From NCBI GenBank assembly GCA_965178125.1, contig OZ237753.1, forward strand, positions 310,001 through 374,000: 64,000 nucleotides of DNA, in the 5' to 3' direction. The DNA comes from Bilabrum cf. latius. Its lineage: Eukaryota. The position numbers and the translations under genes are program-made. Position 1 is the first letter of the stretch. Each line of letters begins with the position of its first letter. The notes below the pieces were generated by a model. It had not been told where the DNA came from, did no database searches, and saw only the letters and a list, made by a program, of their open reading frames with translations. Below are positions 16,690-43,000 of this stretch, piece by piece.

Positions 16690-16958
16690 GGGCTGATCCT
16701 ACGCAAACTCAAGCGGAGATGGTCTGATCCTACGCAGGTCTCCTTAACTCACGAGTAAGTGCGCGCTCTCTATCTTTCGCTGCCGTTGCACTTTCGAGCA
16801 AATTAAGCTACTCAACCAGGTCACCGGACTGCATTTCAAACGAAAATTGCTGAAGCAAGTGCTCCATGGCCACTTGATTCGACGGCGGTGCAAGGAAGGT
16901 TCCTTTGAAGTCTAATGAAGGGCGCATTCGGCCTACTTATGGGACGGATTTCGTGAGA

Positions 16959-18698
16959 ATGGACAACTACTATGAAAGGACTTATCAGGACATACAGCAC
17001 CTGATCGATGGACAGAGGAGGCTCGAAGAGTTCTTTGCCCAGATCGTTGCGGGACATCCAATCCAGTCTCCTGGACGGCCATCGCTAGCAACTTTGGTTG
17101 GGTACCGTTGTGGAAGAAAGCTAAAAGCTATTCTACGCGAATCCAATGGCAGCAGGAGGAGATTGGTAGCGCTTATGTGCCAGAAGTATAGTCCTGACGA
17201 GCTCGGCATTTCTGATTGTAAAGCCCAAGAACTACGAGTTGTGCACAGAATAGACCACATTCTAAAGTACAGACGTGCGTGCCGCGTTCAATTCGATGGA
17301 GGCAGGGTTTACCGCGCCGCGCAAGAGGGAAGACCGCTTGAACTGCAAAAGAGGCTCCGGTTGGGAGTCTTGGCAGGGGCCCTGTTCTCGCATCCAGTGG
17401 GGGAAACTAAAGAGCCGGGTGGTGCCACCAGGCCAATTTCAGCTGCATCAGAACCAGATTCAAGCCACAAGTCTCCCGCGCGGGGTAGACCTGAGTACCC
17501 GGCCCGTCCAGCCGCAGCTGCTTGCCTTGGATCCCACGCTGCATGCCTGCAGGTGCTCCTGGACGCTGCCCGGAGCACTTGCGCGGCGGCCCCCCACACC
17601 GCAGCCGTGGCCATGCTCGCTCAGCCAGCGGGTCCTAGCCAGGACTCTGCCATCGGCGCTGCTCTTAGAGGCAAGTGCTCTGGCGAAACCGCGCTTGTGG
17701 TCGCCACGGCGCTGGAAGCTGCGGCAGAGTCCGCGGCAAACAATCTCACACCCCACCAGCTGTGCACGGGCATGCGATGGCTGGCCCGACGCAAGAAGAA
17801 GCTCTAGCATTGGCAGCAGTCCTTGAGGCAGGGCAAGCGAGATCTGCGTGAGGAAATCGATAGAAAGGAACGGATCGAGGCGCATGCCTTCTGGGGGGAG
17901 TGGAGGAGGAGGTTGGATTTTCCAGAAAGGTTCGGGCATCCCACACCAGAGCTATGCGCAGAGTACAGATCAACAGTCAGCTAGATGCGGGACTACCGCA
18001 AGTCACGAAATCCGCTGAGGTCAATGCGCGGAAGGGTGAACACAGCACTCGCGCACGTGCAAGGAATGACGAGTGCCGTGAGCCGGAAGTAGGCTGCCTT
18101 GCGAACCACCGTGCTCGCAGGATTCGGCGCGGCTGCCGCCCTTATAGGCACTCGTCACACGGGCGCAGCAGTCCGGACCCCAGCGCTGCCCTGGCACGAC
18201 GGCCCATCCGACGTGCTTGCGGCCATGGACGCAGCCAGTGCCAGTGCAAGAGGCTGCGGTGGAGGGCCCACGGCTGGCCTGCTTGACGAGCGCGACCATC
18301 ATGATGAGGCTTGTTTGATCAGGCTGTGGACTCCCTGCGATGATCAAATGCGTGTGACGAGTGCGGACGAGGCGGTCGTGGCGGAGATTCACGAGCCACG
18401 GCATGGGTACTGGGTCGGGCTCTGCAATGCGCAGGCGACCGCGACGAGATCGCTTGTTGCGGTGGCAAGCGCCGTGCGGGCGGTCCACGGGCTGCCTGAG
18501 AGCCGTATTAAGGTGGGTACTGAGCTACCAGTAGCTAAGGGCGTAACGAGCGGTGGGCTTGGCGAGGTAGCCGCACTGGGAGGCAGGGCTGGGCTGGCAA
18601 GGGGGTCCGCACGGACCGCCTTGTTGCGCGAGCTTGACTGGATGATGAGGTGCGACAGCGTGCTTGGTGTTTGTATAGGAATACGTAAGCCTTTATGA
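16959..18698 (+). CDS. Hypothetical protein with degenerate ankyrin-like repeats (~579 aa, TAG read-through)
   Basis: ORFs 16905-17807 and 18099-18698 are in one frame, linked through three TAGs, and end in TGA. Ankyrin-like segments VYRAAQEGRPLEL and PAAAACLGSHAACLQVLLDA. The start ATG is inferred. Confidence 0.6.
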
Positions 18699-18857: not shown

Positions 18858-21800
18858 ATGGATGCCACAGCTGCATTATGCAGCTATGCTTTCATACAGG
18901 AGAATTTCCGTAGCACTGTTCAACAACTTGATGCATACGCCAAGAAGAACGTGAGCATCGCCCAGCTGTCCCAACCCTGAGCGCCTACAGTCTCCAACTA
19001 CCTCGGAAGTTAGCTGAAGTTGTAGCAGGTCGAAGTCTGTATTTCTCTTTCTCGACGTTTGCAGGATTGGGTGGACATCCGGGTACAGCTGAACAGGGCT
19101 CTCGCTACTTTTGCACTCTCCGGTGGTTCAGACCACGCTAGGCTTTTGCACGAAATCACTAGGCTAGAGGAGCAAGCAAACCAGGTACATTAGCAAAGAA
19201 TTAAGGCAGCGTGAGTCCATTGCTGACCAAGCCTTGGCCTCGAAGCAGCGCTGCTGTTCTGGACGCTCGCATGCTTCCGATCCCTACCTCACCTACGATA
19301 CTTCTCAAGCAGCAAGGAATAGGAAGGTTGCGACGATTTATCGCCCAAGCAACAAGCAGAATTGACAGCAATCGCAGCATCAGAGCGCGGTGCGATGCGC
19401 TACAACCAGGCAGTCCTGCTGTTTGCTCTGCAGCGACAGGCGACCGCGGGGCACGTCCTCGAGGTGCTCTTCCAGCTCTCTGACCCGGTGGACGACTGGG
19501 TTGCGATGAGATCTGGTTTCTTGCTGCTTGAAATTTGCGTCCACGCGTACAGAGTGAGGTGTCCGGGTTGCTCACGACATCCACGGGATGGTATTGCTAC
19601 AGACCACTGGTGCCGCTAGCTGCTGGCTGGTTGACTGGCCCAGCTGTCAACCAGCCCAGCTGGCCCAGATAAAGCACCCCCAAATGCATGAGCAGAAGCA
19701 CCTTGATTCCAAGCTATAATGCAGCGCGTGTCGCTGACGACCCTAAATCACTCGCTTCGCTCTCGCTCTCGCGCAGGGCTTCGCCCCGGGCGACACCGTC
19801 GCACTTCCGGTTTTGCAGAGCGCACACCGCATCCTCGACTACCTCCGGGGTCAGAAACCATTCAATGACCCCGCCGCCATCGCGGCAGCCCTTGCGGCTG
19901 GGGAGGCGGGTGGCAGCCCCGAGGTCAAGACAGCGGCTGCGGCTGACGGCAACCCAAAGCACGACGTCACTGCCCAGGAGGCGGTTGCAACCGCAGCGCA
20001 GCCCAAGTCCAGGCACCGCGCCCGGGCTGAGCGTCTGGTGGGCCGTTTTTGGCTCCGGACGTGCGGGTACAGCGCGGAGTTTGCGCTCGTGGGCGGGTCT
20101 CCGGCAGAGGCACGCAGGTACGTGCAGCAGGCCCTGCAGCTGCACGCCAAGCACACCGCCAATGCAGCTGCCATGGATGAAGAAGAGGCCCACGGCAGCA
20201 CGATGCCTCTGTCCGCCATCCCGGAATACGGTTCGAGGAGGGACAGGGAGCTGGATCATTCCGGCTCCGGATCTTCCGGGGGTGGGCGGGCCGGTGACGG
20301 CAAGGGTCGGGGCTCGGGGGGATTAGCCGGGGAACACAACGAGGAGGAGGACCATGACCCGGTCACGGAGGGTTCTTTGCACCTGGCGTCCCTTTCAGAC
20401 CGAGTCTCCACTCTGCTGCTGCGGTCTAGGATCGAAGCGGCTCGGGGCCAGAGGGTGAGGTCCCTCCGTCTTCTCGAGCTCGCTAGGCTCTCGCAGGAGG
20501 GCAGGGGGCCGTTTCGATCCAAGGCGCACGAGTAGGCCGGCCTCGGCTCCAAGTCTCTCGGGGAGGAGCCGAAAATGGAGGGGCAGGCATTCCTCAGCGG
20601 CGGGTCTGCAGAGTCGGCTGCTGTGGGCGGTGATGTCACTACGGGTGCGTCAGACGATGGCGCGGGAGGCCACGCGGTGCTCCGTGACTCGCTCCACGGA
20701 GCCAGGCTGGCCACGCAGGAGGCACAGAGACTCAACGACATGGGCGTGCTGATGGCGCAGGACGGCAGGCACCATAGCGCCATGCTCTTGCTCAGGAAGG
20801 CTCTGGAGTCGTGCCAGGCTGCAGAGGGCGCCACCGCGCGAGCCATCCGGTGCGGCTCCGCGGTCATCGTTTCCAGGGAACAAGGGGCCGACCTGGGCAG
20901 CAAGGCAGACGCGCTGATCGAGGGCCCTGGGTCCACGGCCCTCGCTACCGGCTCTTTGGCCACAAGCTCCTCTGTGGGCGAGGGGCTGCTGCCAACCATC
21001 GGGCCGCCGAGGTGCGAGATCCTTTTTAACGCCGGGCTCACTGCACTGCGGTGCAGACGGCCAGTGAGGGCCTACCGCTACCTCAGGAGGGCAGCTCTCC
21101 AGTTCCGGCAGCGGCCTCGGCTGTGGCTCCGCCTGGCAGAGTGCGCCCTGATTCTGCACGAGCAGGCCAGCGGACAGAGGCCCGAAGCTGCCTCTCCCAA
21201 CGTGCTGGGCGAGCCGGCGCTCCCCATGGAGTCGCACCCCCACGTGATTGGCCAGCCCAGCATCGAAGCCATCAAGGAAGAGATCGCGGCGCGGCGGGAG
21301 CGGAAGGACGCCGCGGCCCCTGCAGAGGGCAGCAAAGACAAGGGGGATGCTTCGTCGTCTTCCGCGGCTGCATCGGGACAGGGCGGCGAGGACGAGGACC
21401 CTACCGTGGAGGAGGTGCTCAGCGCCATGTCCGGCGCCGCCCTTCCGAGCGGGGCATGGGAGGCGGCCTGGAGCTCCTCCGGACTGGTCAAGGGGCGGGC
21501 GGGTGAGGGAACAACGCAGAGGCTCGTGCTAGAGGAAGCACCCGCCACGTGCCCGCCGGATCCGGTGGACAGGCTGGTGAAGCTGGCGGAGCAGGCTGCG
21601 GGGGAGCACGGCGTGGACGAGTCTGCCGAAGAATCGAAAAAAGAGGAGGCAGCTCCAGGTGCCGGCACCGCGGATTCCGGTCCCGGGAAGGAAGCGGCTC
21701 CGGATGCGGAGTGGCCCGCGCTCCCGACACTGAGCTTCGCGCGCGTGTGCTTGCAGAACTGCCTGGCCCTGGTGCCGCAAGCGTCGCAGTTCCAGGTGCC

Positions 21801-22566
21801 AGACCCACCGGCCCCGGGCAACCCTGATGCGCAGACGCTCGCCACGCAGCGCGCAGCCGCCATGCGCGCCGCGCTGGGGCGGTGCAGGCTGCGCCGCGCG
21901 GCCCTTGCAAAGCTCAGCTACATTTGCCTGCTGCAGAGAGACCCCTCAGCCGCCCTCTCCCACGCCATGGACCTGATCCAGGACCCGGAGCCCGTGGCGC
22001 CGCCCCAGGGAACAGACGCGGCGGCCTTCGCGGCCCAGCTGGGCCCCTGGTCCTACTTGGGCAGCATATACGCGAGCGAGGCCCTGTGCCTGCTGGGCCG
22101 GCCCGGCGAAGCCGCGGGCCTGGTGACCCCTGCCGTGCTCGAGGCAGCCACGGGCCGCGCTGCCTTCGACGCGCACGAGACCGCCACTGCCACCTTCGGC
22201 GCAGCAGGCCCGTCGGCCAGGCAGAGGGCGGTCAAGCAACAGTTTGCCCCGCCGCGGGCCGCGGGCAGTGCCCTGTACACCAACCTTGGGGTGGCCTACG
22301 CCCTGAGCGGTGACCTAGCCCTTGCCCAGCAGTATGCGAGCAAGGCGCTGACTGTGGAGCCGCTGGCCAGGGAGGCAAGGACGCTGACGGCTTTCCTCTC
22401 TGCTGCCTCGGGGCGGGCGGCAGAGGGCAAGGACCTCGTCACCCGAGGCGTGGCGCCGGTGACGACCAATTAGCAGCAGTAGCAGTAGCAGCAGCAGCAG
22501 CAAGCTCAGTAGCAGCAGGCGCAAGCTGGGCCCGGACAGGCGGGGCAGGCTCCAGCTGCTCAGTGA
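18858..22566 (+). CDS. CNOT10: CCR4-NOT complex subunit 10-like TPR protein (exons 18858-18950, 19065-19210, 19310/19313-19553, 19777-22566)
   Basis: Motifs YNQAVLLF, EILFNAGL..L....P..A, RPRLWLRLAECA, AKLSYICL...DP..AL and IYASEALCLLGR match CNOT10. Three phase-compatible GT-AG introns. In-frame TAGs include a terminal TAG/CAG poly-Q tract, and the gene ends in TGA at 22564-22566. Confidence 0.85.
22471..22518 (+). repeat. Mixed TAG/CAG/CAA trinucleotide tract encoding poly-Gln at the CNOT10 C-terminus
   Basis: In-frame TAG CAG CAG TAG CAG TAG CAG CAG CAG CAG CAA GCT CAG TAG CAG CAG. Confidence 0.9.
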
Positions 22567-22751: not shown

Positions 22752-24245
22752 TCACCACTTGCACCCAGTGAGCCCCGCCTCCGGGTACTCGACCAGCATG
22801 GCGCTCAGAGGGGGCAGCTCGATCGGCTTGGACACGTCCCCGCTCGCTGGAGGCATCGCGGGCACCTCGCCGGAGGCAGACAGGGCCAGCACGTGCCCGT
22901 TCAAGGTCATGTTCGGGCTCGTGTACACCCCGTCAAGTCCCTGCAGCAGGTACTCGTTCCTCACGCTCCCGGGATTGAACCCCGTTGCAGTCACCTCGGC
23001 CGTGCTGTTGAGCAGGTTCATGGTGGTCAGCACCACGGTGCCGTCCATGCGACTCCCGCAGTAGGCGTACGTGCGGATGTACTGCTCCGCCTGCTCCTGG
23101 TCCTTCACGCCCAGCACCGCCTGGCCCACCAGCCGCTTCCACAGAACCGCCGTGTAGTAGTCGGGGTTGGGCACGGCCTCCGGTGTGACGAGCTCGTAGG
23201 CCCCACCGGTGAAGGTCTGCCGGATGACGGCCTTGTGGCCTTTGTATGAGGCATAGCCCAGCTGATCCAACCACCAGAACGTGGAAGCAAACCTGTCACT
23301 GACCCCGTACGTGCCCCCGTCATACGCCGAGGAGGACTCCCCCAGGATGGGCTCCACGTTGGGGAGATACTTGGCCTTGATCTGCTGCACCTGATCGATA
23401 TCAGAGCGAATACTGTCAAGCACCTTAGGCTCGATGAACTGGTACGCCTGGGAGGTGTGTCCGTTTTCATAGTAATGGTGCCAGGTGAGCGCGCCGAGGA
23501 TGTCGCCCTTCCCGCTCTTGGCCAGAGACTCGGCAAACTGCTACAGGAAAGAAATCTGAAACGCAACGTCGCACCCCACAATGCTAGGGGCATCGTACGA
23601 GTCGTTGTTTATTTTGCCGGGTCCATAAATGTCAGACAGCACGCCTGCCAGCGCGATGAAATCCTTGGCCACCGTCTGCGGGTCCATGTCGAACGTAGTC
23701 TTGTTCTTGCTAGCAGAAAGGTCCATCTCGTTGCCCAGCTCCCACCCCACGACTTGCTGGTTCTCCTTGGCGTGCCGGATCAGGCCCTCTGCGTTGTTGG
23801 GGTTCCACTTGCCGCCAGGAGTGCCGTCGCCGGTGCGGTTGAGCTCGCTCAGCCCAAAGACGAGCTTCCATCCGACCTCCTTTGCGAAGTTGGCGAGAGC
23901 ATCGAATGAGGACACATTCACTGGTTGCAACGGCCGCCCTATACTGACAGATGCAGGCCCGTCCTCGCCTTCACTGGCGAATCCTTGATAATAAAGGAAG
24001 TCTGCATCAGTGCCTCCCACCCTAAGCCAGGCTGGACCGAGAGTTTTCGCGAGGCCGATTACCACTTGGTTGTGGTACTAGAATCGGCTACCAAATCCTC
24101 TGTACATTTCGCTGGCATCGATGGTTACGCTGAGAAACTTGGGGTTAATATACTGAGCCACTCCTTGTACTTCTACCGCATGCGAAACAGTCTAATCGCA
24201 GAGAGCTGACCAGGCAACGCTCGCAATTATTATGAACTTAAGCAT
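22752..24245 (-). CDS. Glycoside hydrolase family 79 (heparanase/beta-glucuronidase-like), secreted, copy A
   Basis: Signal-peptide-like MLKFIIIASVAWSALC. Motifs FLSVTID, LRVGGTDAD, WELGNE (acid/base), LGESSSAY (nucleophile), FWWLDQLG, IRQT and PNPDYY. Three in-frame TAGs (24192, 24078, 23541) and a TGA stop. Confidence 0.9.
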
Positions 24246-24406
24246 GCCCAACGAGGTAAAATGCTTCAATATCGTCCCTGAGTGCCTGTATGCAACGGCT
24301 AGCGCGCACGCCGGCGGCTGCTCCGGATGGATCCATGGCATCCCTGCTCGCTGCATGAACCGAAGGCATCAGTACGGTGACGCAATTCTGACAAGTAACA
24401 AACAAA
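24246..24406. promoter_or_regulatory. Probable shared bidirectional promoter between the two GH79 genes
   Basis: 161-bp spacer between divergent ATGs. Function is inferred from position only. Confidence 0.45.
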
Positions 24407-25906
24407 ATGCGTCTAACAGTGCTCGCCCTTGCAGCAATTAAGTTGCTCCAGACGGCCTCTGCCACGAGCAAAACGGTGCAAGTGGAGGGGATCGCGCAGC
24501 TGATCAACCCCAAGTTCCTTAGTATCACCCTTGATGCCAGCGAGCTCTTTCACGGATTTGGCAGCCAGTTTCAGTACTAGAACAAAGTGGTTGTCGGTCT
24601 CGCGAAAACCCTCGGGCCGTCTTGGCTCAGGGTGGGAGGCACTGATGCAGACTTCCTCTGGTATCAAGGATTCGCCAGTGAAGGCGAGGACGGGCCTGCA
24701 TACACAGCTGTACAGTTGGGGCATGCTGTACAACCAGTGAATGTGTCCTCATTCGATGCTCTCGCCAACTTCGCAAAGGAGGTCGGATGGAAGCTCGTCT
24801 TTGGGCTGAGCGAGCTCAACCGTACCAGCGACGGCACTCCTGGCGGCAAGTGGAACCCCAGCAACGCAGAGGGCCTGATCAGGCACGCCAAGGAGAACCA
24901 GCAAGTCGTGGGGTGGGAGCTGGGCAACGAGATGGACCAGTCCACCAAGCATAACAAGACTACGTTCGACATGGACCCGCAGACGGTGGCCAAGGATTTC
25001 ATCGCGCTGGCAGGCGTGCTGTCTGACATTTATGGACCCGGCAAAATAAACAACGACTCGTACGATGCCCCTAGCATTGTGGGGTGCGATGTTGCGGGAA
25101 GTCTGGATTATTTAGAGCAGTTTGCCGAGTCTCTGGCCAAGAGCGGGAAGGGCGACATCCTCGGCGCGCTCACCTGGCACCATTACTATGAAAATGGACA
25201 CACCTCCCATGCATACCAGTTCATCGAGCCTAAGGTGCTTGACAAGGTCAGGTCCGGCATCGATCAGGTGCAGCAGATTAAGGCCAAGTATCTCCCCAAC
25301 GTGGAGCCCATCCTGGGAGAGTCCTCCTCGGCGTATGACGGGGGCACGTACGGGGTCAGTGACAGGTTTGCTTCCACGTTCTGGTGGTTGGATCAGCTGG
25401 GCTATGCCTCATACAAAGGCCACAAGGCCGTCATCCGGCAGACCTTCACGGGTGGGGCCTACGAGCTCGTCACACCGGAGGCCGTGCCCAACCCCGACTA
25501 CTACACGGCGGTTCTGTGGAAGCGGCTGGTGGGCCAGGCGGTGCTGGGCGTGAAGGACCAGGAGCAGGCGGAGCAGTACATCCGCACGTACGCCTACTGC
25601 GGGAGTCGCATGGACGGCACCGTGGTGCTGACCACCATGAACCTGCTCAACAGCACGGCCGAGGTGACTGCAACGGGGTTCAATCCCGGGAGCGTGAGGA
25701 ACGAGTACCTGCTGCAGGGACTTGACGGGGTGTACACGAGCCCGAACATGACCTTGAACGGACACGTGCTGGCCCTGTCTGCCTCCGGCGAGGTGCCCGC
25801 GATGCCTCCAGCGAGCGGGGACGTGTCCAAGCCGATCGAGCTGCCCCCTCTGAGCGCCATGCTGGTCGAGTACCCGGAGGCGGGGCTAATCTGGTGCAAG
25901 ATTTGA
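24407..25906 (+). CDS. Glycoside hydrolase family 79 (heparanase/beta-glucuronidase-like), secreted, copy B
   Basis: Signal-peptide-like MRLTVLALAAIKLLQTASA and the same catalytic motifs as copy A. One in-frame TAG (24578-24580) and a TGA stop. Confidence 0.9.
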
Positions 25907-26018
25907 GCGGGATTAGCCCCATTTCTTGATCAGTTTTCTTGGTTGATTCTTATTCTCGTGTGTAATAAATCATGCAGACTCTTGCATCGCAGAGCCTTTC
26001 GATCAACCTCTCCCATGG

Positions 26019-28375: not shown

Positions 28376-28530
28376 CGTGATTTTTGTGAGTGATGTGATG
28401 CAAGCGGGAACGGCCCAACTCTAGTGATGACAAGCGTGCACTGCAGTTGCGGACGAAAACGTCAGCTGAACCCTGTCAGATCAGCCAATACAGTACCAGT
28501 AGCCAGTCAGTTAATGCACACTAGAAGCCC

Positions 28531-29223
28531 TTAACCCTTTCGCGCCGGCTTCTTCACGCCAGGCCAAACTCTCTCCTCGGTTGGATCCCACTAGATCTAT
28601 CCGACAGCCTTCTCAAACGATCTCATCGCGGCTGAGCTGCCTTCCATCATTCGCACTGGCCTGTGAGGAACGCTTCGATACAAAGATAATGCTTGCTTCC
28701 TGCGCAGTGGCACAGCACCAGATCGCATGGCGCTGCTGTGGTCAGCTAGCTTGAGCGAGCGCGCGAGTGTCCTGGCGGAGCTCAGCAAATCGGTCTTTTC
28801 ATCATCCGACATAGCAGCAGCCCTATTTGTTGATGCATTGCTGTATTTCTATTTTGGTGTGCGCTTTGGTTTGCTTGCTGCGCCGCTTGGCTGGACGTTG
28901 CCGCCGACCAGGGTCCTGCTCGCTCGAATATCCCCAGGCGGCCCGAAGTCGATCTGCAGCGAACCGAAAAGCTCCGACTGCATGAACTCGCTCTGCATCC
29001 CTTTCATCTATGTATTTTTCTAGCTTTCTACTGGTTTCGGATGAATTGGGCTCATTGCCAGCGCCGGAATCGGAAGGTTGGGCGAGCCCACTTGCTCGGT
29101 CGCTTTCACTTCTTCTTGGTCTCGCAGCTCCTATTGCAAGCATTCCATGAATCTTCCAGCGCACTCTTTCTCAAACAAACGAGGATCTTCATAAATTCCG
29201 TCCACACCGAGCATCGCGTCCAT
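28531..29223 (-). CDS. Hypothetical protein (~230 aa), ending in TAA
   Basis: ORFs 29131-29343 and 28597-28812 are in one frame, linked only by TAGs (MDAMLGVDGIYEDPRLFEKE...WPGVKKPARKG). The first non-TAG stop is TAA at 28531-28533. No family recognised. Confidence 0.5.
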
Positions 29224-29728
29224 TGTAGCAGTTGTTGTTTTGTGAGCGGGCGTGCAGCGACACGCTCGGACGAAACCGAATCGGAAGCAACTACTTGATC
29301 CGATCTTAGCAACCAGCCGCAAGAGTGTGGCGGAGACTCGCACGAACTATCACAAAGAATGGGACCTCCTCATCTGTACGTTTGTACGTTTTGTACTGAA
29401 ATGAATCAGAGTGAACCGCTCCGCCGCAGGCTGCCTTGCGGGAGCGGCAGAGCTTTGCACTGGCAACTCGAAGTCCATTCAGAGGGACGGCAGTCATACT
29501 GCATGCGATCCCACGAGACAGTTGTACTTATGTGGACAATCAAGCAATGCTTCCGTCTCGTTTGATCAACCATTCGGGTCCACAGACCGCGATTTGTGTT
29601 GTGTTCTCGGTGTAAAATTGTAAGGTGCCATTTATGCGACAAACCGCACATATGCAGTGCAGCCTACCAGGGCAGAAGCTTATTCAGCAGTGCGATTGCT
29701 GTCCCTTCATTAACTTCATATTCTAAGA

Positions 29729-30622
29729 ATGCGCGTCTCGGCTCGAGCTGCAAGGCGAATTGTTTCGGAATCGACCCTAGCTGCTGGGTCTTGTGCCGCA
29801 AGGCATGCCTCGTCGCTTGCTCTACCTTCCGATGTGGGGGTAGCAGTATGCACTCCTCGTCAATAGGATAATTGTTGGGGAAGCAAGAGATCAGGAGGAG
29901 TTTGGCGCCAGTAGCGTGCAGGAATGGCAATGATGTAGCCCAAGAAGAAGGCTGGGGAAGGTGGGCCTGTGATGCACGTCGACCCCAGGCTTTCGGATTT
30001 GTTGAAGAGAATGGCCCTTCCAGACTTTACTCCGTAAGTATATATAGTGTCCATACGAGCATGTCGCGCGCTTCTCGTCCTGGGATGGTTCGATATGATG
30101 CTCCGCCCAATCAACCCAATCAACCAACGCAGACCAGAGAGGACGAAGGAGGACTTGGAGCTCGGATATAAGCTCGGTAGAAGGTATAATAGATGGTGCT
30201 AGAGGCGCCATAACGCTTAGAACAAAGACATGTCAACGAAGATGAAGCACCGGTACGAGGCCCTCCACGCGCTGTCCGACGACCCGACCTTGCAAGCCGA
30301 GGTGCTCGTTCACAAGTTCGAGACGATCGAACCACTGGGCAGGATGCGCCAAATCGACTCTCGACCCCCGATCATGGGCTGGCACAGGGAGCAGGACGAC
30401 GAAGAAGAGGAAGAAGAGGTGGATGAGGAGGCGAGGGCCAGCGGCCGAGCCAAGCGGGTGCAGCGCGGTGCTGCCAGCCAGGCCCTCTTCGGGGAGGCCG
30501 TCGATCTGGACGAGGACGAGGACGAGGACATGGATGCAGAGGCGCTGCTGAAGAAGAGGCGCGCGGCTGCCAGGGCGAAGGCGAAGGCCAGGGCAGCACG
30601 CCGGAACAAGAAGAGAAAGTGA
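29729..30622 (+). CDS. Probable mitochondrial ribosomal protein mL40 (MRP-L28 family)-like, exons 29729-30033 and 30133-30622
   Basis: Arg/Ser/Ala-rich presequence-like N-terminus (MRVSARAARRIV...WRQQRAGM) and a GTAAGT...CAG intron. The helical core LGRRYNRWCQRRHNAQNKDMSTKMKHRYEALHALSDDPTL resembles mL40. Five in-frame TAGs and a TGA stop. Confidence 0.55.
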
Positions 30623-30950
30623 GGCGGCGAAGGTGCGGTCGTTGGTGCCATCGCCATGTAGCAGCTTTTGAATTGGATTGGTACAGATGCCTTCAACAAC
30701 TTATGCAAATGTTACAATTTCAATGACGATGGCGCACTTACGGTCAATTGTGATTGTACTGGATCCACCGTGGCTGGAACTGGATAGTCTAACGAATGTG
30801 CACTGCTTGCCTCACGCATTGCCTCGAACGAACGTTGAACCAATCAAAATCACGGCACTACCCTCACACTGGAGAGACCCGCATCCACAAAACAGCCTCA
30901 GCCTCTGCCCATCCACCCCCCCCCCTTTCGCATCATCCCAGGTGGCGCTC

Positions 30951-32446
30951 TCACAGGTAGAGCCCCTCCGGGATGTTGCCCTTCTTCTTGTACAGGGCCT
31001 TCTCCTTGGCTTGCCTGAAGTCCTCCTGAGTCACCTTCATCCTCCTCTCGCGGAGGGCCAGCAGACCGGCCTCCGTGCAAACCGCCTTGATATCGGCTCC
31101 GGACAGCTCGTCCTTGGCCATGACGAACTCCTCCAGGTCGACATCGTCCGCGAGGTTCATCTTGCCCGTGTGGATGTTGAAGATCCGGCGCTTGGTCTTC
31201 TGGTCGGGCAGGGGGAACTCGATCTTGCGGTCGATCCGGCCGGGCCTGATGAGAGCGGGGTCCAGGGAATCTATCCTGTTGGTCGCCATGAGCACCTTGA
31301 CGTCGGAGCGCTCGTCGAAGCCGTCGAGCTGGTTGAGCAGCTCCAGCATTGTTCTCTGGATCTCCCTCTCTCCGCCGCTGTTGCTGTCGTACCTCTTGGT
31401 ACCCACGGCATCGATCTCGTCGATGAACACGATGGAGGGCGCGTTCTCCTCTGCCACCTTGAAGAGCTCCCTCACCAGCTTGGGGCCGTCGCCCAGGTAC
31501 TTCTGGATCAGCTCGCTGCCGACCATGCGGAGGAATGTCGCGGAGGTCTCGTTGGCAACTGCCTTGGCCAGGAGGGTCTTGCCGGTGCCCGGCTCCCCGT
31601 ACAGGATGACCCCTTTCGGGGGCTTGATGCCGATGTCCTCGTAGAGCTCGGGGTTGGTGAGCGGGAGCTCCACGGCCTCCTTGATCTCCTGGATCTGCTT
31701 GTCCAGGCCACCGATGTCCGCGTAGCTTTCCAACGGGGCCTTGTCCACCTTCATCATGTTAACAGAGGCGTCGGAATCGTCCGCCAGAATGCCAACGACG
31801 CTCGACGTCCGGTTGTGCAGCAGGATGGAGCAACCGGGCTCCAGCTGGTCCTGATCCACGAACGAGCAAATCGTGACGTACATCTCCGGGCCGCCACCAG
31901 AACTAATAATGCAATGAGTATCGTCAATAATTTCCTCTAGCGTGCCGACGCTGAGCGGGGAGCCCCGCACGTCATCCAGCTTTTCCTAATCCTCCTTATC
32001 CGTCTTCTCCTTCGGGTTCAAGGCGTCCTAGTTTCGGATGAACTCCTCTTCCATCAACAAGTAGTCCTTCACTCGATTCAACTTCAACATGCGGAGCTTG
32101 CACTTTGTTGTGGGAAACACTTTCGGCATTTTGCTGGAGGCGCTTGCCCCCTTGTGACGTCGTTTCTTGCCAACTCGCCCGGGTGGCTTGATGTCTGCGA
32201 GACATTAGGGGTAAATCATCCAAATCAAATGCATCGCTGGACATACTCCTGGAAGGGAGCGACAGGGCGCCGAATATCAACGGATCGACGTCTCTTACCA
32301 AACCTCTTGCGCTTGGCCTTCTCTTGCTCCTTTTTCTTCTTCTTAGCCGCATCGCTGCCACCAAACCCGCCTGGCCCGTCATCTGGAGGAGGCGCGCCCC
32401 CTCCAAATCCTCCCATTCCAAAAGGTGGTCCGCCGCCGCCGTCCAT
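30951..32446 (-). CDS. PSMC1: 26S proteasome regulatory ATPase subunit Rpt2 (exons 32299-32446 and 30951-32194)
   Basis: Walker A GEPGTGKT, Walker [23 protein letters not shown]-terminal GLYL and N-terminal [13 protein letters not shown]. Intron 32195-32298, two in-frame TAGs (32028, 31986) and a TGA stop. Confidence 0.96.
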
Positions 32447-32588
32447 GACTGTCCAAGAATGCCGACCACGCTCGCTCAAATCTCAAAACCGGTTGCAACC
32501 TTTTTTAAAGGCGCGGCGCCTCGCATTCGGTTCCGCAATTCAACCGTTGCACTAACTCGGTCTTTGAATACGTGATAGGTCAACCAAC

Positions 32589-35500
32589 ATGGATGACCAT
32601 CCGGGGTCATTCGAAGAGTGGTATGAGAGAAAGGTAGAGCAGGAAGAAGAAGAGCGAGAATCCCGGAGACGGGATCCAGAGGCGGAGCGAGAGGAACGCG
32701 AGATCGCGGAATAGAAGGCAAGAGAGGCTTACGAGGGTTGGATCTTGAACAAAGAGAATCGTGAACGTGCTATAGCTTCTTTGTGGAAACTGGATACTTC
32801 CAGGGCGTCAGACGAATCGTCCTGGAGAGAAGTTGGGCGTGCTCTGGCAGCCGTGGACGTCTCCCTCGGGATTCCCTGCCCGGAAAAGATGCCACACCTC
32901 GGCCCAGTGCAATCTGCTCGGCCGGAATAGCGCTCCCTATTCGTAGATTTCGTGCGCTGGAGCCGGGAGCACCACGCATTCGACGATGCCGTGTTCCCGA
33001 AACGGCTCGAGGATCGGCTCACCAGGGGGTTTCGGCAGCAGCTGGACGAGGACCCGGAAACCGGAAAGCTCAAAATGAGCGGATTGCGCTTTGAGGAGCC
33101 CCCGGAGGTTCCTGCGGGGCAGGTGCCCCGCCCCCTGACGCTCGACGACAAGATCAGGAACCGCCTCTTCCACCTCCTGTGCCTGCGTGCGTGGAAAGGA
33201 GAGTACAGGGAGGCGGAAGCGGAAATCGAGCCTCAAATCGAAGAGGAGAAGCAAAAAGCAAGAGACTCGATCGAGAAAGCCAGAGAGCAGGCGGCCAGGG
33301 AAGGCAGGGAGATGGGTGGTGCCGCAAGTGGGGGCAAGAGGGGTGCCGCTGGCAGCAAGGCAGAGGCAGAGGGGGAGGACGAGGACGGGATGTCTCCTTG
33401 GGAAAACGAAGATGCCATGAGAAGAGCCGCCATACGGGCCCTGGGGGTGGGCAAACTGGCGCGGTGGGCGGGAGACGATGCCAGGAGGCGCAAGAAGAGG
33501 GAGAGGATTGAGAGGGACGACAAGCGGGCAGAGGCAGATGCCACGCACCGGAGGTGGGTGGAGAGAAAGCAGCGCACTGCAGTGAGGCTGCCTCCCGAGG
33601 GCCATCCCGCTGCGGAACCAACCGGCGGTGGTGCGATCTCCAGACGTGAGAGGCTGGCACACCCAGGAAGGCCCCAGCGGTTCGACTTCACATTCCGAAC
33701 CAAGTCGCACCGGAGGCCCCCGCCCGCGCCCACCGCCACCGCTGTGGATTCTGCCCTGCGTTGCAGGCTGCCGGGCCAGAGGTACGTCCACACGGGCCAC
33801 TGGCACGCGCCTCCCGACGGTCAGGTGGATGACAGCGACCTGGGTCGGTCGAGGCGCGCGCTCCTTGAGCGCGGTTTCGTGCACAAGGAGAACTTCAAAG
33901 ATCCCGAGGTGGGTGACGTCGACGAGGAGGGACTGGAGAAATACAGGGAAGAGAAAGAAACGAACCCGGTGCTGCAGGCGCAGCAGAGGGAGAAGGAGCA
34001 GGGCAGGCGAGAGAAGCTGCTGGGATACGCCCGGTGGAGGGGCCGCACCACCAGCAGGCAGCTGGCCATGAGGCTCCTGGCCTGTGTTCCCCGAGGAACA
34101 AGACCACCCATGGTAGATCAGGTCGTCCCCGCCCTCCTTCGTAAGGCAGAGGGCGGGTCCATGCGGCGGGGACGGGACGATGGTGCAGAGGGCGCCGCGC
34201 ACACATCTGCGGAACTTGAAGACGCGGCCCTCCGAGCCGTAGGTGCGATCACAGACGGAAAAGTGCACGGTATCATTGACTTGGAGGCGGGTGACGTGGA
34301 ACGACTCAGCGGCTCGATGACCGCCGCTGACTTTGTGGCGAGGAGGGGCGTGGGCGCCGGAGAGGGCAAGGATGCCGACTCTGACGACGACTATGAGGAT
34401 GAGGGTGAGGGTGATTTCGATGAACGCGGGCATGGGGGTGGTGCCGGCTCGATGGACGACTATGATTCTGACGGTGGAGTGGGGGATCCGCTGTTCCAGG
34501 AGGAGGGCGCGAGGAGAAGGGGAAGGAAAAAGAGCAAGCGTCGCCGCGGCTCGCGGACTCGGAAGGGCAGCGGTCAGGATGACGATGGCGATGGCGATGA
34601 CGACGATAGCTACAGTGACGATCACGAAGATGATGAGGATGACGATAAGTATAGCAGCGACGGAAGCAGCCGATCAGGCGGAAGCAGTAGGAACGGCAGC
34701 GACGAAGATGATGACGAGGAGGAGCGGGCAAGGAGCCGAGTCGCCCGCCAGTTGCGCGAGATGGGCGTCGATGAGGACGCTGAGGCAGAGGCGAGACGAA
34801 TCGCCGAGAACGCTGATGTGAAGGCAGACACGGCGGGGCGATTGCTGTGGCTTGCGGTGGGTCAGAGTCTCAAGCGGATCGACGGTACGCTGCAGGTGCC
34901 GTTCACGCGATGGGCGAGGCCGGTGGCAACCCCGTCGGATTGCGAGAAGGCGTGGGGCAGGATGGAGCGGGGTGGGGGCGGCGGCGGGGGCATGCTGGCG
35001 GCAGGAGCCGCCGGTGGTGCGGGCGACGGGATCGGTGGCAGAGGGTTCGTCAGTCCAGAGCAGGAGGAGGCCGTTGCTTTCCTTAAGCAGGTGTCGAGGC
35101 AGGGCCGGAGGTCGTTGCGGCTTGGGGTCAGAGCAGTGGTTGCGAGGCCGCCGGCTGCTCCGATCCTTCGAAGGGTGGCCAAACTGGAGCCTCCCCCTTT
35201 GCCCATGGCCATGGCCGTAGGGCGCGGATGGGCCCGCGGGCCTCCTCTTGTTCCCTGGCTGGAGGGGCTGTCCCGGGAAGCGCGCAAAGACATGTCCGTG
35301 GCGGGGGAGCTTGGCCTCCTACCGTCGTACGGTGCCAGCTTGCACCTGGCGTGGGGACTGCCGCCAGGGTCGCCGCCCGAGAGTTTCTACGTGCTGGAAT
35401 GCTGCGGCTCCACGGGCTCGAGGCAGCAGCGCAAGGCTGACTGGCGGGCCGTGATCACGGACCCGCCCTCGGCCAGGGGTTGGGGCAAGGGCAGAGACGG

Positions 35501-38500
35501 CTCGCCCTCGCCAGCGAGGGGCCTCCCTGCTGGGGGGGTGGTGCTCCGTGGGCTTCCTCCGGGCCGTGAATTTCACTTTCGGCTCCGGGCGCTGAATGTT
35601 CACGGTGCCTCGCCCTACCACGCCATCGTGGCCTCCACGTGTCCGGTGCCAGCGCCCCGCCCGCTGGCTGCAAAGGTCGGCAGCAAGTCCATCCGACTGG
35701 AGTGGGGCATCTCCGCGGCACAACGTGCTGTGACGAGTGCGCTGCGCGGCTTGTGGGTGCGCGAAGCCAAGGCGTGGAGGGCTATCAGGGAACAAATGCT
35801 TGAGGGAACAGCGACTGCTCCGGGCCGCAGGCTCATGCTTGAAGACGGGTACGAGGACGATGACTATACCCGGGGCCAGTTCGGTGGCGTGGGTGCTGGC
35901 AGCACGGCTGTTGGAGCGCATGCCCCTTTGCTGCCATCGTTACCGCTAGCGGAGGGCAGGCAGGGCGAGACGATGATCCTTGCGGGCGGGTTGGCAGCGG
36001 TTCCTGGGAACGGCAATGGCGAGTCAGAGGACGCGGCGGAAGATAGCGGCGCCAGCCCGGACATTCCGGCGAGTAGGATCCTGCAAGCAATCGCTAGTGA
36101 TCAGCACCTGCACGCTGACTGCGCCGCACTGGCCTCCATGCTGCCGGGCGTGCAGGAGGCGGGGCTGGCAGCTGCAGCGGCAGAGGAATCGCTCGGGTAG
36201 GGCGATGGGTGCGGCTTTGTGGCCATAGCGAAGCGCTGCATGCCAGTGGTGGGCTGGAACGAGCTGCCTTGGTCCAACACGGCGCGCGCCCTGGCCGTGA
36301 CGGGCGGTGACGGCCCGGAAGAAGTCGCGCTTGGCGCTCGGCGCTCTTTCGTCCGTAAGGCAGGTCCTGGGCTGGGCGCACTCGCGGGGTGGCTGGACCA
36401 GATGAGCGGGGACGGTGATGGCGTGCAGAGCAGGAGGCGCCGAAGATCGAGGCAGCGATCGGCAAGCAGCAGCGCCGCCAGCGAAGGTGCGAAGGATGGC
36501 GGCGACTCTGGACCGGACGGTGGCAAGGCCTAGGATACAGAGACGGGCAACAAGGAAGGCGCTGATTCCGACAGCGATCGCGACGGGTACAGCGACGATG
36601 GTGACGACCTGGACGCTGAGGAGCAAGGCGCTCGCGTAAGCTGGCAGCAGTTCGCGCAGCACGCCGCCTTTCTGATCGGGCTGCCACTGGAGGAGCTTCT
36701 CCCGGCGGGAGCGTCTCCTGTGATGAGTGCGACCGGCCTTGTCACTGTAGGATCTGGCATGCTTGGGCCCTCTGCGGCGGCAATGTCTGCACGAGGCGTG
36801 TCAGGCGCTGGCGCTATCGTCCCGATGGCTGGGAGCGAGATGCCACACGACGGCGGAGGACCACTCCGGGGAGCGATCCCGGGAGAGTTAAGCCTCAGCC
36901 AGTCGTCTTAGTCCACGGCTGGAGTGCACAGTGCCAGGCGCCCGGTCTCAGCGCGCTCCAGGGCGGGCCGCCAGGGAACAATGCAGGGAGCGAGCGGGCG
37001 CCCCGGTGGGGTGAGGGCCTCGCTCAGCCGTGGGGCTGCACCGCTGCGGCGCAGCGCCAGCGGTGTGATGAGTGGTTCCCCCCGGGGAAGAGAGTCGAAC
37101 GCGCTGGCGATTGCAACCCCAAGGTCTCCGCGGCGGGGCTCGCAGGAAGTTGCGGTGGGTATGACGGCGGGAGCCGCCTCAATCGCCCGCGCGCGCGCGA
37201 GCGGCGGATCCACCGGTGGGTTGGGAGGCACTGCCCGCTACGGTTCGTCCGCTGCCGCCGCAGCTGCCTCGGCCCTGCCTCCTGGGTTCCGGTACGTTCT
37301 GGAGCAGAGCGTTTCGGACCCACCGGCAGGTGCGGAGAGCAGGAGGAGGAACAAGGGACGGGGCGGCAAGAGGGGCGGAAAGGGCCAGCGCAGGAGCTGG
37401 AAGGTGCTGTACCAAGGCAGGAGCCCATGGAGGGAGATAGAGGGCCTAAACTCCGGCTGTGCGTACGCCTTCCGGGTCAGTGTGACGAGTGAGGATGGTC
37501 AGGTGGTCAGCCGGCCGTCCCCAGTGCGGATCGTCACGACGGCCCTGCCTCGACCGGAGACCCCTGCGGTCACTGGCGGAAGCAGCGGAGGAATGGGAGC
37601 GAACGCTCGCCAGGCTGTCTCAAGTTTGCCCACCGAGGTGTCGATCCGGCTGCCTCCGCCAAGCGGCGCAGTGCCTGCCTCCACGGAGGCCGTCAGGGCG
37701 GCTGCTCGTAGGACTCAAGGCGGCGGAGACGAAGACAGCGACAGCGGAGGTGCTAGACCTTCGACTGCTGCGGGCGGTTCCGCAGCGCAGGTGTTGCGCG
37801 GCGCCGAAGGGGGCGGTGCGAGCACCACTCCGGACGACTAGGTCATCGCGCTGATCGGCACTTGGACGGGGGACGACGATGAAGGCGGCGCTATACTGGG
37901 CAGCAAGTCCAAGGGCAGCGGCAAGACCAACGGCTCGAATGGGAGCGCAGGCGATGCCGGGCCCGGAGTCGATTTAGCCAGGGTGTGGGCAGCTGAAGAC
38001 AGGGCAGGTGAGGGAGTGCTTCCCCTAAGCTGCCTCCCTGCCGTGCTGCGCCGTCTTGGCGCGCCAGCCTGGAGAGATGCCTGGCAGCTGCGGGCTGCCG
38101 GTGCTGCGCTGGATCCGCTGGGCAGCGGTAGCGTGCGGTTTGCGCGATTCAGGGCTTGGTGGCGCGGCGAGGCGCTGTTGTCAGCAAAGCAGTGGCAGCA
38201 AGCCAGAGAGCAAATGGTCATGGAACAAGAGAAAGGAGAGGCCGGGAGGGGAGCAGGCGCCGCTGGCCTGCTGGCTCTGTCAGACGATGCCAGTGCCGGG
38301 CAGCCCGCTGGAGATGCGAGCGCAGTTGCAGGCTTGGCCACCCGCGCCGCCCCAGCTGGGCTGTCCGCGCCCGGGCCCGAGGCACCTGCGGTCTGGGAAG
38401 TAATTGTGTAGGGGCTACCTGCGACAGGAGCAAGGTTGCCCACGGGATGGACCAACGGTGATCCCGCTAAGGCGGCTACCATGGCTGCGCTGCGCACCAC

Positions 38501-39959
38501 TGTTGCTTTGGCGAGCGGGATCGGTGCGCTACAGGGCGGCAATGCGACCCGTGGTCGTGATTTTGGGGGCCTGGATGAAACGGGCGTCACCGCAGGGGCT
38601 TCAATGGACGCGGGGCGAGGTCGCCCTGGCTCGCCCGGAGCCGCGCCGGCAGTGGTAGTGTACCGCGGCCTGGGCGCAGTATCCGAGGGCGGTCAGCGCT
38701 CCGTGTCTATATCCGGCTTGAATCCGAACGGCAGGTATGCGATTCGCCTGCGGAGGGTGGGTCGCGCTGCGTGCTCTGCCCCGAGCCCGGCTCTGATCGT
38801 AACCACACCGCCCATGCCGCCGCTGGCCCCAGCAGTATGCGAGGCGTTCCCTCAGGGTGCTGTGCTGCGATGGCACCCTGCGGAGGGTGGAGCTCAGGGG
38901 TACGTAGTGGAAGCTGCCATCGTTGAGGCGCTCCCGAGGGGAAGGAAGGGGAGGAGGTAGCAGGTTTCTGGGCAGCTCGACGACGGCGATGGCGGGGTCA
39001 GGGCGCTGGGTGGTGCTGCTGGTGCCACCGCCGCGGGGCGTGAGGGTGTCGCCACCAGTGCGGGGATTCCATCATGGCAGCTCGTCTGGACAGAGTTGAC
39101 TCAGACGTCCATTCCGTGCGCTACTGTCGGCGGGCTGTCGCCGTCTGCGGTGTATCGGGTGCGTGTGCGAGCGGTTGGGCCAGAAGGTGGGGCATCGTCC
39201 AGCCCGTCGCCGGAGACTGCGCTCGTCACGCCTGAGCCCAGCGATTGGAAGTTCCCTGGGCCAAATCGAGCAGCGGACGAATTCGTGATTGATTGTGAAT
39301 CGGACTCCGTGCTCGGAGACGCGATTCTATTCACGGAGCAGGTTCCTTTGGATGGACGCCCGGCGCTTCCAGGCGTGCGCATGGGTGCTGGTCTGTCAGC
39401 CGAATTGAACGAGGCAGGGAGACGAAAGTGGCTGCGAGCCCGGGAGAAGTTGTCTGAGCTTGGCGACTAGACTGGCGCGACTAGCGGTGGCGATGATCTT
39501 GCTATTGAGAAGTAGCGGCTCGAGCGGTTGCTCGGGCGAGTTTCTGGCGTTGGTGAGAGGACAATTGCTGCTCGCGTAGTCAGCGTACATTGGCCGGGCG
39601 CCGATCGTGCGGCCAGGCTTGCAGACAAGCTGAAATCGCGACGGGAGGAAGCAGAGGGCGCGTCGGGGGATGGCGAAGGTGGAGCTCTGCGAGATGCGGG
39701 CGAACTTGTCCGTGTCATGACAAGGGAGCGGCGGGTCACGTTGCAGGTCGTCTGGAGCAGGGGCCTGGGGCCCGGCGGAGACAGAGACAGTGGGAGGGAC
39801 TTGCAGCTAGACAAAGGCTGTCTTGTGGAGCGGAAAGGCTGGGAGCTCGATATCGCCGGGGTGCATCGCCTCCCCTGGCTTGAGGAAGACGGACGGTGGT
39901 CTGCTGCAGAGGAAGCTGCCAGGCTGCTGCGCGACTGGGCTGGGGTGTTCTTGGATTGA
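32589..39959 (+). CDS. Large (2,456 aa) protein with two PriCT-2-like segments, acidic low-complexity tracts, about 4 fibronectin type III domains and an EF-hand-like motif
   Basis: Fragments at 32745, 32952, 36219, 36720, 36924, 37983, 38436, 39096 and 39528 share one frame, broken only by TAG. FN3 signatures GLPPGREFHFRLRALN, GLNSGCAYAFRV, GLNPNGRYAIRL and GLSPSAVYRVRVRAV. EF-like LDPLGSGSVRFARFRAWW. TGA stop. Confidence 0.75.
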
Positions 39960-40086: not shown

Positions 40087-43000
40087 TCAAGCCAGTCTTT
40101 CCCTGAGGATCAAATCCTCCAACGAGACCGGCCCCTTCTTACTTTTCCTGGTCTTGCCCATCCCATTTTCTCTCGAAGAACCGCGCGCCTGGACCTCGGA
40201 TTCCCCAGGTGCAGCCGATCCGCTGGGAGAGATGCGCCTAGAAGATGTTGTTCTACCAGACTCCCGGCTGGCAGCACGCCGCAGGGAGCTTGGTCTGGCG
40301 CGCTCACCCCCGTCAGCCTCAGTTGCGTCTACTCCGGCCCGTGCCGCCACCGATGCGACCACGATGGCCCTTGCAGAGTCGCTGCCTAGCTTCCACAGGA
40401 AGAGCACGATCACCTTGCCCAGCTGCACCAAGGGCTCCTGGAGCACGATGTCCAGTGCAAACGAGACCAGGCTAGCGATGACCCACGCCCTCGCCTGCTC
40501 GGGGGTGAACAGTATCCCGTACAGGCAGCACAGGTAAAACATGAAGCCCACCACCACGAGCAGCACGCCGTACACCAGCCCGATCATCAGGCTCCTGTCC
40601 CACCAAGCCTGCTCCCAGTCCTGCACCTGCTGCTGCCTCCTCCTCTTAATCACCGCCCTCCTTCTCTTGAGCAGCTTCACGATTCTCAGCGCAGATGCAT
40701 GGAAAGTTGGATTGTTGCCCATGGCCTGTGCCAGCTCCGTGCGGATCCGAACTTGCTCCGTACCTTTGTCATGCAATGCACCCCTGAAGCACTCGAAGAT
40801 AAAGTACCCAGCCAGGATGAACAGGGCAGGCAGCACCTGCAAGCCAAAGACAGCACCGGCTGCCTCTTCAGCAAACGGCAGTGACAACACGCCCATGAGT
40901 ACACCGCCAATCATCTGCAGCAAGATGGCAGGCACCAGCGCATATAGCGCGTTGTAGACCCAGCCTCTCCTCGACTGAATGAACGACACAGTTCCCAGCA
41001 CCATCATGCACAGGCCAATTCCGGCCAGGATAACGATCGAACCAGCCGCTCCATCTTGCTCCGCCCACACCTCTGCGCTCAACAGGTACAGCCCAAGCAG
41101 CATGCCCACGAAGCCCGCCCACACCCACACCATGGACACAATGCCTAGGGCATTCAGCCAGGGCCGGAGCCATTTGGCCGGCAGAGGTGCCTTCACCCTC
41201 AACTGAGCTCTTGCGCCAGTGCTCGTAGTCTCTTCGGCAGCACCAGCCAGCCGCATGCTGCGCACGATGCGGCGACAGGTCGCATCGAACTCGCTCTCAA
41301 GCACGGCCCAGTTCTCTCTCGCGTCCTCGATACGTGCCCCATCTGAAGACGAAGACAAGCCGTTTGTACCGGACCCTGCAGGTGATTTCTGTCCCGCCAT
41401 CTCCACTTTCCTTGACTCTCGTCGCGGGCGGATTACTCCTGCATCACTACTGCTGTTGCTATCATGCTTGCCACCCGACGAAATTGCTGCAACAGGCAGC
41501 ATCTCCGACTCGGCGTGCACTCGCATGGCCAGCGCAGCAACGAGCGACGCGATCAACTCAGTGTGTCTCCTAGAAGCCTCATCGCCGGCACTTTCAGCGG
41601 TTGCATCGCCAAATCCAGCGGCGGCAGCCGCGCCATGTCTCTACACGGGACGAGGCATGCTGCCAAGACACGCAAGTCCGAGCGTGCGCATATGTTCTCT
41701 CTATCGCAATTCACCTGCCGAGAGCTCGCTTGGATTGCGCATCAGGTCGGGCCTTGCCACTACGTGCAGCAGGATGCTACGCACCTCGTTGAGTGACAGG
41801 ATACCACGAGAGTCTGAAACCGCTCTCCTCTTGTATACAAACCACTCAACGGCCGCATCCATGTCTGCAAGCGCTCCTATAACCGCGCGAGATACGCGTG
41901 TGGCCTCGTCAGGGTCGGTGAATGCCTCAGCCGAGTCAGGAGCATCGATCGTGGGGTCCTCCGGTTCTGGCATGCCGGCGCTGCGAGCAACGCGCCTGGT
42001 AGCACTGAGTACAGCTTCGAGCGGGACCACATGGTCTGTTGGGTCACCACCGATCGCACTTCCAGCGTCCGATGCAGCTGAGGAGCTGCCTGGCCCAGTC
42101 ATGCGAGCGCGAGTATGCGATTGCTTAGCTGCACCCGCAGCATCTATACCCCACGTTCCCTCAGTAGCTTCATTCGGGGGGTCAGCGTCTGCCTCACTAT
42201 ACGAACTTACAGAGGCTGCACTGGTCTATCCTGCCCCGGTGATCGCGGCCTGACCGCCTCTCGCAGAGATGCCGTCTTCTTGGGCGCCGCTCCCTTGCTC
42301 CTTGTCCTGCGATTTCCGGACAGCGGCAGCGGCTTGCTATCCAGCATCTTCGTCATCAAAGTCGCTATCATCACCGGCATCTTCGCCAGCTGCGGTAGTG
42401 ATGAACGATGGCGCCCTTGCGAGAACTCCGCGCTGGCCAGACTCCTGCAATGCAGCCAGAGCTTCGGCCTTGCGATCCGCTAGCTCCTTGGATCGCTGTT
42501 GCCTGACGCTGTAAGAAACGTCTAGACTGGCGGCACGGAACGTGTTGATAAAGGCGAAAAGGAACGGAGACAGTCGCTTCACTGGAATCATCGAGGCCGC
42601 CGAGATGGCGGCGGAGACGAACCTTGCAGAAACTCGCTCAGCATCGCTCCCAAAGAAAATGGCGTTGATAGCCATCGAGGTCAGGCAGGTGGCCGTCAGG
42701 ATCAGCAGCCGCTAGGGCCGGGTCACCACCAGCAGGTCCTCTTTTGGAGTAAAGAAGATGCTGCCCCACATGTGTCCTCTCCTTAAGCCGTCAAGCCATT
42801 GCTGGGTCAGGTAGGCCACTACTAACCAGAGCGTGCCTCGCTGTCGAAGGTCCATCCACTCATGCCTGGCGTCTTCCTTGTCCTGTCGAATTGCCTCCAG
42901 CTGCGCCCGGAGTCCCTCTTCCTCTCCACGCACGGCGGCTTCAATCTGCTACAGGTCAACGTAGGGCGGGTACACGGCGTACAGTTCCTCCTCTAGCGCC

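Follow-up and report, generated by a model that had tools for sequence, protein, structure and literature searches.

According to PMC5304391, the first genetic codes in which UAG is uncoupled from UAA were reported in 2017: that of the rhizarian exLh, in which UAG encodes leucine, and that of Iotanema spirale, in which it encodes glutamine. Iotanema spirale belongs to the Fornicata, and its primary terminator is given as UAA (Panek et al. 2017, PMC5304391). The later UAG-only cases named by McGowan et al. (2024, PMC11687900) are Scotinosphaera, where UAG is serine, Protocruzia tuzeti, where it is glutamine, and the phyllopharyngean ciliates, where the change to glutamine is described as having occurred twice. 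Such reassignments are a rare natural proof that the ribosome, the tRNAs and the release factor eRF1 can separate UAG from UAA, and this separation bears both on how stop codons are captured and on engineered amber suppression in eukaryotes. A preliminary description of the DNA analysed here presented the uncoupling of the two codons as nearly unheard of. That assessment was too strong, since the same arrangement is NCBI table 15 and is known from several eukaryotes (PMC5304391, PMC11687900). The code described below is probably of this already known type, with the DNA representing a further lineage that uses it, possibly one that has been described before.

The window, by which we mean the whole stretch of 64,000 nucleotides analysed, has a GC content of 0.59, which ranges from 0.55 to 0.67 per 4-kb step. 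Pfam matches were found to FG-GAP and REJ, fn3, two GH79, acyltransferase, TPR repeat and proteasome AAA-ATPase families, and the ATPase is most similar, at 78–83% identity, to Rpt2 proteins of eukaryotes in the database. It is concluded from the ATPase relatives and the Pfam domains that the window is eukaryotic nuclear DNA, of a GC-rich and gene-dense protist.

The three giant genes of the window (at least 5455, 2463 and at least 7970 codons) are intronless, while four of the small genes between them have one to four GT-AG introns each, of 82–316 bases. The first giant ORF occupies 2..16366 on the minus strand (5455 codons, its end lying beyond the window) and contains 50 TAG, no TAA and no TGA in frame. 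It had no match in Pfam; its last residues resemble those with which a PI3K-related kinase domain begins, as we presume from the motif. It is followed by a 606-codon ORF on the plus strand (16878..18698, three TAG, ending with TGA at 18696–18698), for which Pfam likewise gave no match, and by the TPR-repeat gene (18858..22566, plus strand), which has seven TAG, four of them within its C-terminal polyglutamine tract, and a TGA end at 22564–22566. The TPR gene has three GT..AG introns on the plus strand, at 18951–19064, 19211–19312 and 19554–19776. Two GH79 (heparanase-like) paralogues, 91% identical, then lie head to head: paralogue a at 22752..24245 on the minus strand, with three TAG and a TGA end at 22752–22754, and paralogue b at 24407..25906 on the plus strand, with one TAG and a TGA end at 25904–25906. 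The acyltransferase gene (PF01553; 26347..28375, minus strand) has three TAG, a TGA end at 26347–26349, and four introns on the same strand, at 27452–27767, 27840–27926, 28007–28088 and 28173–28261.

Beyond it on the minus strand is an orphan ORF designated orf272 (28534..29223, 230 codons from the first ATG, six TAG), to which we return below. A small gene on the plus strand (29729..30622) contains one intron (30034–30132), five TAG and a TGA end at 30620–30622, and the gene for the proteasome ATPase Rpt2 (30951..32446, minus strand) contains one intron (32195–32298), two TAG and a TGA end at 30951–30953. The remainder of the window is occupied by the other two giant genes, namely the fn3-domain gene on the plus strand (32589..39959, in an ORF of 2463 codons at 32568..39959), with ten TAG and a TGA end at 39957–39959, and the FG-GAP/REJ gene on the minus strand (40087..63999, 7970 codons, its start lying beyond the window), with 41 TAG and a TGA end at 40087–40089.

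When the three standard stops are applied, the longest ORF in the window has 1146 codons, and when TAG is read as a sense codon this rises to 7970 codons, followed by ORFs of 5455 and 2463 codons. The standard code therefore shatters the genes of the window, and their annotation needs the right table. Reading TAA as sense in addition does not extend any of the three giant ORFs. Ten gene models were counted, including the four that are spliced according to the joints in the RNA-like contigs described below. Together they have 19,789 codons, among which there are 125 TAG, no TAA and no TGA in frame. The observation in the preliminary description that in-frame TAA is absent where TAG is frequent was thus borne out. 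The TAA triplet itself is not rare: out of frame, these genes contain 163 TAA in 39,558 triplets, and the two strands of the entire window together contain 433.

This absence bears directly on the possibility that the code is that of table 6, in which UAA and UAG both encode glutamine and UGA is the sole stop, with TAA being hidden by GC bias. The genome is indeed GC-rich, and all of the supported gene ends are TGA (see below), as table 6 would have it. Against it, codons ending in A are not rare in these genes: CAA makes up 0.249 of CAA plus CAG, and the corresponding shares of GAA and AAA are 0.275 and 0.249. If TAA were synonymous with TAG, about 41 in-frame TAA would be expected from the CAA share, and the probability of observing none is P = 3e-16; it is still 1.8e-10 if the strongest avoidance of A in any two-fold box is used instead (a TTA share of 0.164). 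The relatives described below similarly have no TAA as against 27 TAG. UAG and UAA are therefore uncoupled, in agreement with the preliminary description, and table 6 is rejected as a highly improbable reading. It follows with a good deal of confidence that UAA is not a glutamine codon here.

Contigs from four (X1, X5, X6 and X7) of the 22 public runs listed for the window were compared with the window over positions 16000–35999. The contigs of X5, X6 and X7, which come from two studies, join across nine stretches of 82–316 bases that have GT..AG ends (CT..AC where the gene is on the minus strand), while none of these stretches is joined in X1, which is DNA. The depth of X5–X7 is very uneven and that of X1 is flat. 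Because of the joints missing in X1 and this difference in depth, we infer that X5–X7 are derived from RNA; the run records are silent on the point, and an automated guess for X5 was 'probably DNA'. The joints yield coherent spliced frames in every case, with three introns in the TPR gene, four in the acyltransferase gene, and one each in the small gene and in Rpt2. The 606-codon ORF is covered by an unspliced X5 contig spanning 16939–18701. The six smaller genes have 21 TAGs between them, 19 of which lie within pieces of the X5–X7 contigs that show no difference from the window, with no variant letter at any TAG. Taking X5–X7 as RNA on the strength of their joints, it is concluded that the mature mRNA retains TAG, without editing or removal by splicing.

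These contigs also bear on the suggestion that the TAGs are never translated, and reflect pseudogenes, assembly errors, RNA editing or unnoticed introns, a suggestion in favour of which we saw no evidence. The letters are identical in the contigs of four runs, no variants occur at the TAGs, and spliced contigs retain them. Furthermore, the 125 TAGs occur in ORFs that run for up to 7970 codons free of TGA and TAA, some of them fall at conserved glutamine columns, and independent relatives have the same pattern (the last two points are documented below). An explanation of this kind is consequently so improbable that it can hardly be entertained.

Several other features of the contigs were noted in passing. 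GH79b and the acyltransferase gene converge, and between their 3′ ends is a tandem repeat at 26014–26372, composed of 8.8 copies of a 41-base unit with 98% matches, at which the contigs of X1, X5, X6 and X7 all break. Over GH79a (22670–24003) the depth of the X1 DNA is 2.8–4.8, compared to 22–46 elsewhere, which could reflect strain or copy-number variation, or else an effect of near-identical copies on the assembly. Within the small gene at 29729–30622, positions 30395–30530 are an acidic low-complexity stretch of Asp and Glu codon repeats, where many contigs, from each of the four runs, end loosely or join oddly. This stretch is probably one reason why unrelated runs show small word shares. 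Finally, contigs at least 99% identical to the window over 16000–35999, spliced ones included, are found in runs from two studies that are labelled as coming from coded organisms B and C, so the organism from which the window comes may be an associate or inhabitant of other organisms, or a contaminant of their samples.

Relatives of the window were sought by scanning a metagenome with GH79b, which gave three loci. L001 encodes a GH79 protein with 72% identity and has the same arrangement of a TPR and a GH79 gene as the window, and L002 encodes a GH79 protein with 58% identity. The third, L003, was dropped as a relative: its GC content is 0.41, its identity is 23%, and it looks bacterial. L001 and L002 together contain 27 in-frame TAG and no TAA in 2,857 codons, the zero for TAA being partly by construction since the ORFs at these loci were delimited by TAA or TGA, and all four of their gene ends are TGA. 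The use of TAG as a sense codon is thus common to at least two related organisms of one metagenome. L002 also has an open-ended ORF of 1237 codons with nine in-frame TAG (3249–6959), which ends at the contig edge in a repeat of the GA-dinucleotide type (Gly-Ala). Scans with GH79b of genome contigs and of viral contigs gave no match, and a scan of the genome contigs with Rpt2 gave 80 loci, all of them archaeal or bacterial AAA ATPases with 40–50% identity and none eukaryotic. Outside the lineage, homologues of the GH79 proteins have at most 38% identity. A search with the acyltransferase returned one fragment, which is 97% identical.

The meaning of TAG was assessed from conserved columns in alignments. 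In Rpt2, the TAG at 32028..32030 (minus strand) falls at a column occupied by Q in 111 of 120 homologues and by H in the other nine, and it lies inside zero-difference contig pieces of X5, X6 and X7. The second TAG of Rpt2 is at a variable column, where 97 of the 120 homologues have R. The GH79 alignment consisted of four proteins of the lineage and 97 of the 109 database homologues, omitting the 11 weakest matches and P0122, a database protein of 313 aa from a contig of 3809 bases, which is a piece of a GH79 protein of about 500 aa and a further example of the shattering of such genes under the standard code. In this alignment, one TAG of the L001 gene faces Q in all 97 homologues, and another faces Q in 57 of the 97 and also in all three relatives from the lineage. 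The remaining 14 of the 16 GH79 columns with TAG are variable and uninformative; in some of them another residue prevails, such as D (58 of 97) or G (56 of 97).

The codons that stand opposite TAG when the window, L001, L002 and the paralogues are compared with each other are CAG in 12 of 29 pairings, GAG in four, CAA and TAG in one each, and others in 11, these pairings not being independent of one another. At the C-terminus of the TPR gene, TAG is found among CAG and CAA codons in a polyglutamine tract, both in the window (22466–22515) and in L001 (2503–2620), and one TAG is common to the two. Leucine or serine as the meaning of TAG is unsupported by these aligned sequences, and glutamine is supported. 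We consider it as good as certain that UAG encodes glutamine, in which case TAG makes up about 15% of the glutamine codons in the gene models (125 TAG, 517 CAG and 171 CAA).

The polyglutamine tract is informative in another respect. UAG could be ambiguous, meaning glutamine inside genes and acting as a terminator near the ends of mRNAs, as in Condylostoma and the karyorelict ciliates. Such codes are known to exist, and this is what speaks for the idea, no observation in the window being directly in its favour. Against it, the four TAGs of the tract lie 18–31 codons upstream of the TGA stop of the TPR gene, and are read as sense both in the window and in L001. In Rpt2 the TGA comes directly after the C-terminal residues ...EGLYL. 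All ten ORFs reach a TGA or TAA, and none of the ten gene ends in the window or the four in the relatives needs TAG, although this sample is too small to be decisive. Ambiguity of UAG is on this evidence very unlikely.

The ten gene ends in the window consist of nine TGA and one TAA. The preliminary description had arrived at the same count for the same ten ends, with its single TAA following ...KKPARKG, and had characterized TAA as a rare stop and TGA as the dominant one. Its second part stands, since the supported ends, nine in the window and four in L001 and L002, are TGA in 13 of 13 cases. Its first part does not find support in these genes: TAA is found at none of the 13 ends, and the sole TAA gene end in the window is that of an orphan ORF, where a TGA follows eight codons later. 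No special cause has to be invoked for the prevalence of TGA, since base composition roughly predicts it; TAA/(TAA + TGA) is 0.195 over all triplets of the window, and the probability of finding no TAA among 13 ends is P = 0.06.

The TAA in question is at 28531..28533 on the minus strand (reading TTA on the plus strand), and is a candidate stop situated directly after ...KKPARKG in the ORF 28531..29349 of the minus strand, that is orf272. The in-frame TGA is at 28507..28509 (minus strand), and would be the end of the protein, ...KKPARKG*GLLVCIN*, if the TAA were read through. Because of this TGA, termination at the TAA and read-through look the same at orf272, and under table 6 the TAA could equally be an internal glutamine codon. 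Whether orf272 is a real gene is a matter of roughly even odds. It has 272 codons from stop to stop, with seven TAG, and this density of TAG is unusually high, since only two of 113 windows of equal size in the giant genes have six or more. It belongs to no Pfam family, and a search of 1.84 billion representative proteins gave it no match at E ≤ 0.001. Its frame is the best of the six (mean codon score 0.062), it fills a gap of 1.27 kb in a gene-dense region, and when that gap was Markov-shuffled 1000 times, 1.5% of the shuffles contained an ORF of at least 272 codons. The depth over the region in the RNA-like runs is 10.3 for X5, 6.2 for X6 and 0 for X7.

These results also have to be weighed against the idea that termination occurs at UGA alone and that UAA has no assignment, being neither decoded by a tRNA nor recognized by eRF1, and has been selected out of both reading frames and gene ends. 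Such a code would account for the 13 TGA ends and for the absence of TAA from 19,789 codons, and the single TAA end is on an orphan ORF that has a TGA shortly after it. The composition of the window, however, predicts only about 20% TAA among the TAA and TGA ends, so the shortfall from 13 ends is not significant, and recognition of UAA by eRF1 is ancestral. According to the literature cited above, the exLh rhizarian and Iotanema (PMC5304391) and Scotinosphaera (PMC11687900) have all retained UAA as a stop. If orf272 is real, a TAA closes it or lies within it, and neither would be expected of an unassigned codon. An unassigned UAA is accordingly unlikely, though less so than table 6 or an ambiguous UAG. 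Were it true, the clade comprising the window organism, L001 and L002 would use 62 codons as sense and one as a stop, leaving one empty, and would form a 'frozen intermediate' between the standard code and table 6 that is held in place because only a suppressor tRNA with C34 (CUA) exists.

The explanation that we prefer is a code of the table 15 type, in which UAG is glutamine, UGA is the working terminator, and UAA is kept out of reading frames because it has remained a stop. This is the simplest account of why UAA is absent from the frames, and is in our view the likely one; that UAA really does terminate is likewise probable.

In terms of mechanism, a tRNA-Gln with the anticodon CUA, which is one anticodon change from tRNA-Gln(CUG), would account for the capture of UAG without UAA. 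The C34 of a CUA anticodon pairs only with G, so UAA would be left unread. The release factor eRF1 would no longer end translation efficiently at UAG, and would still read UGA and UAA; as an alternative to such a change in specificity, eRF1 may simply be out-competed at UAG. A tRNA scan of the window and of L001 and L002 found no tRNA genes, and the window contains no eRF1 gene.

The placement of the lineage was examined using Rpt2. A tree was made with 36 rows, consisting of the query, 20 named sequences and the top 15 unnamed ones from 120 matches, with no metamonad sequence included. The query falls in a supported clade of seven rows (97/87), together with a row labelled Symbiodinium and unnamed marine rows, one of which is in the same 90% cluster as Cafeteria proteins. 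The larger group around the query contains oomycete, diatom, brown-alga and other ochrophyte rows, and fungi, animals, plants and green algae lie opposite. From this position in a single-protein tree, the lineage probably belongs within SAR, and the placement holds to the level of SAR only. A literature search of incomplete coverage found no report of UAG as glutamine in stramenopiles or in alveolates other than ciliates. Amoebophrya sp. ex K. veneficum was considered as an instance of the same code and rejected, because it is described as AT-rich, with all three stops contextual (PMC12005148). As a further lineage, the window would add to the known cases an independent replicate for the comparison of eRF1 and tRNA-Gln changes, one with a high GC content, TGA as its usual stop, and three or more members whose GH79 identity is 58–72%.

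How this code compares with the described ones can be set out as follows. NCBI table 15 ('Blepharisma nuclei; some phages') has the same assignments, with TAG as glutamine and TAA and TGA as stops, and under it all of the gene models in the window are open and end in TGA or TAA. The difference is that the table asserts termination at TAA, which here is probable; and the window, whose 64 kb of contiguous genes are rich in GC, need not come from a ciliate. Ciliate genomes are as a rule AT-rich. Table 6, that of ciliates, dasycladaceans and hexamitids, also has TAG as glutamine and TGA as terminator, and differs in that the window lacks the in-frame TAA that this table would lead one to expect (none in 19,789 codons, as against about 41). 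Phages that use code 15, crAss-like and others, are reported to have the same codon table (PMC9523058); the window instead has spliceosomal introns, a proteasome ATPase and other eukaryotic genes.

Among the eukaryotes, exLh and Scotinosphaera, in which UAA remains a stop, resemble the window in having UAG uncoupled from UAA, and differ in the amino acid, which is leucine and serine respectively and glutamine here (PMC5304391, PMC11687900). The phyllopharyngeans and Protocruzia tuzeti share the change of UAG, but not of UAA, to glutamine, which is described as having several independent origins (PMC11687900). They are ciliates, whereas the window is long gene-dense DNA with giant genes and a GC content of 0.59. 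Iotanema spirale has the same nuclear reassignment of UAG alone to glutamine, and the mechanism proposed for it, a tRNA specific for UAG together with an eRF1 still able to read UAA and UGA, is alike in outline to the one suggested here (PMC5304391). It differs in that its main stop is given as UAA, while the lineage of the window has TGA at 13 of 13 supported ends, and in that the Rpt2 of the window groups with SAR-type sequences, in a tree without metamonads.
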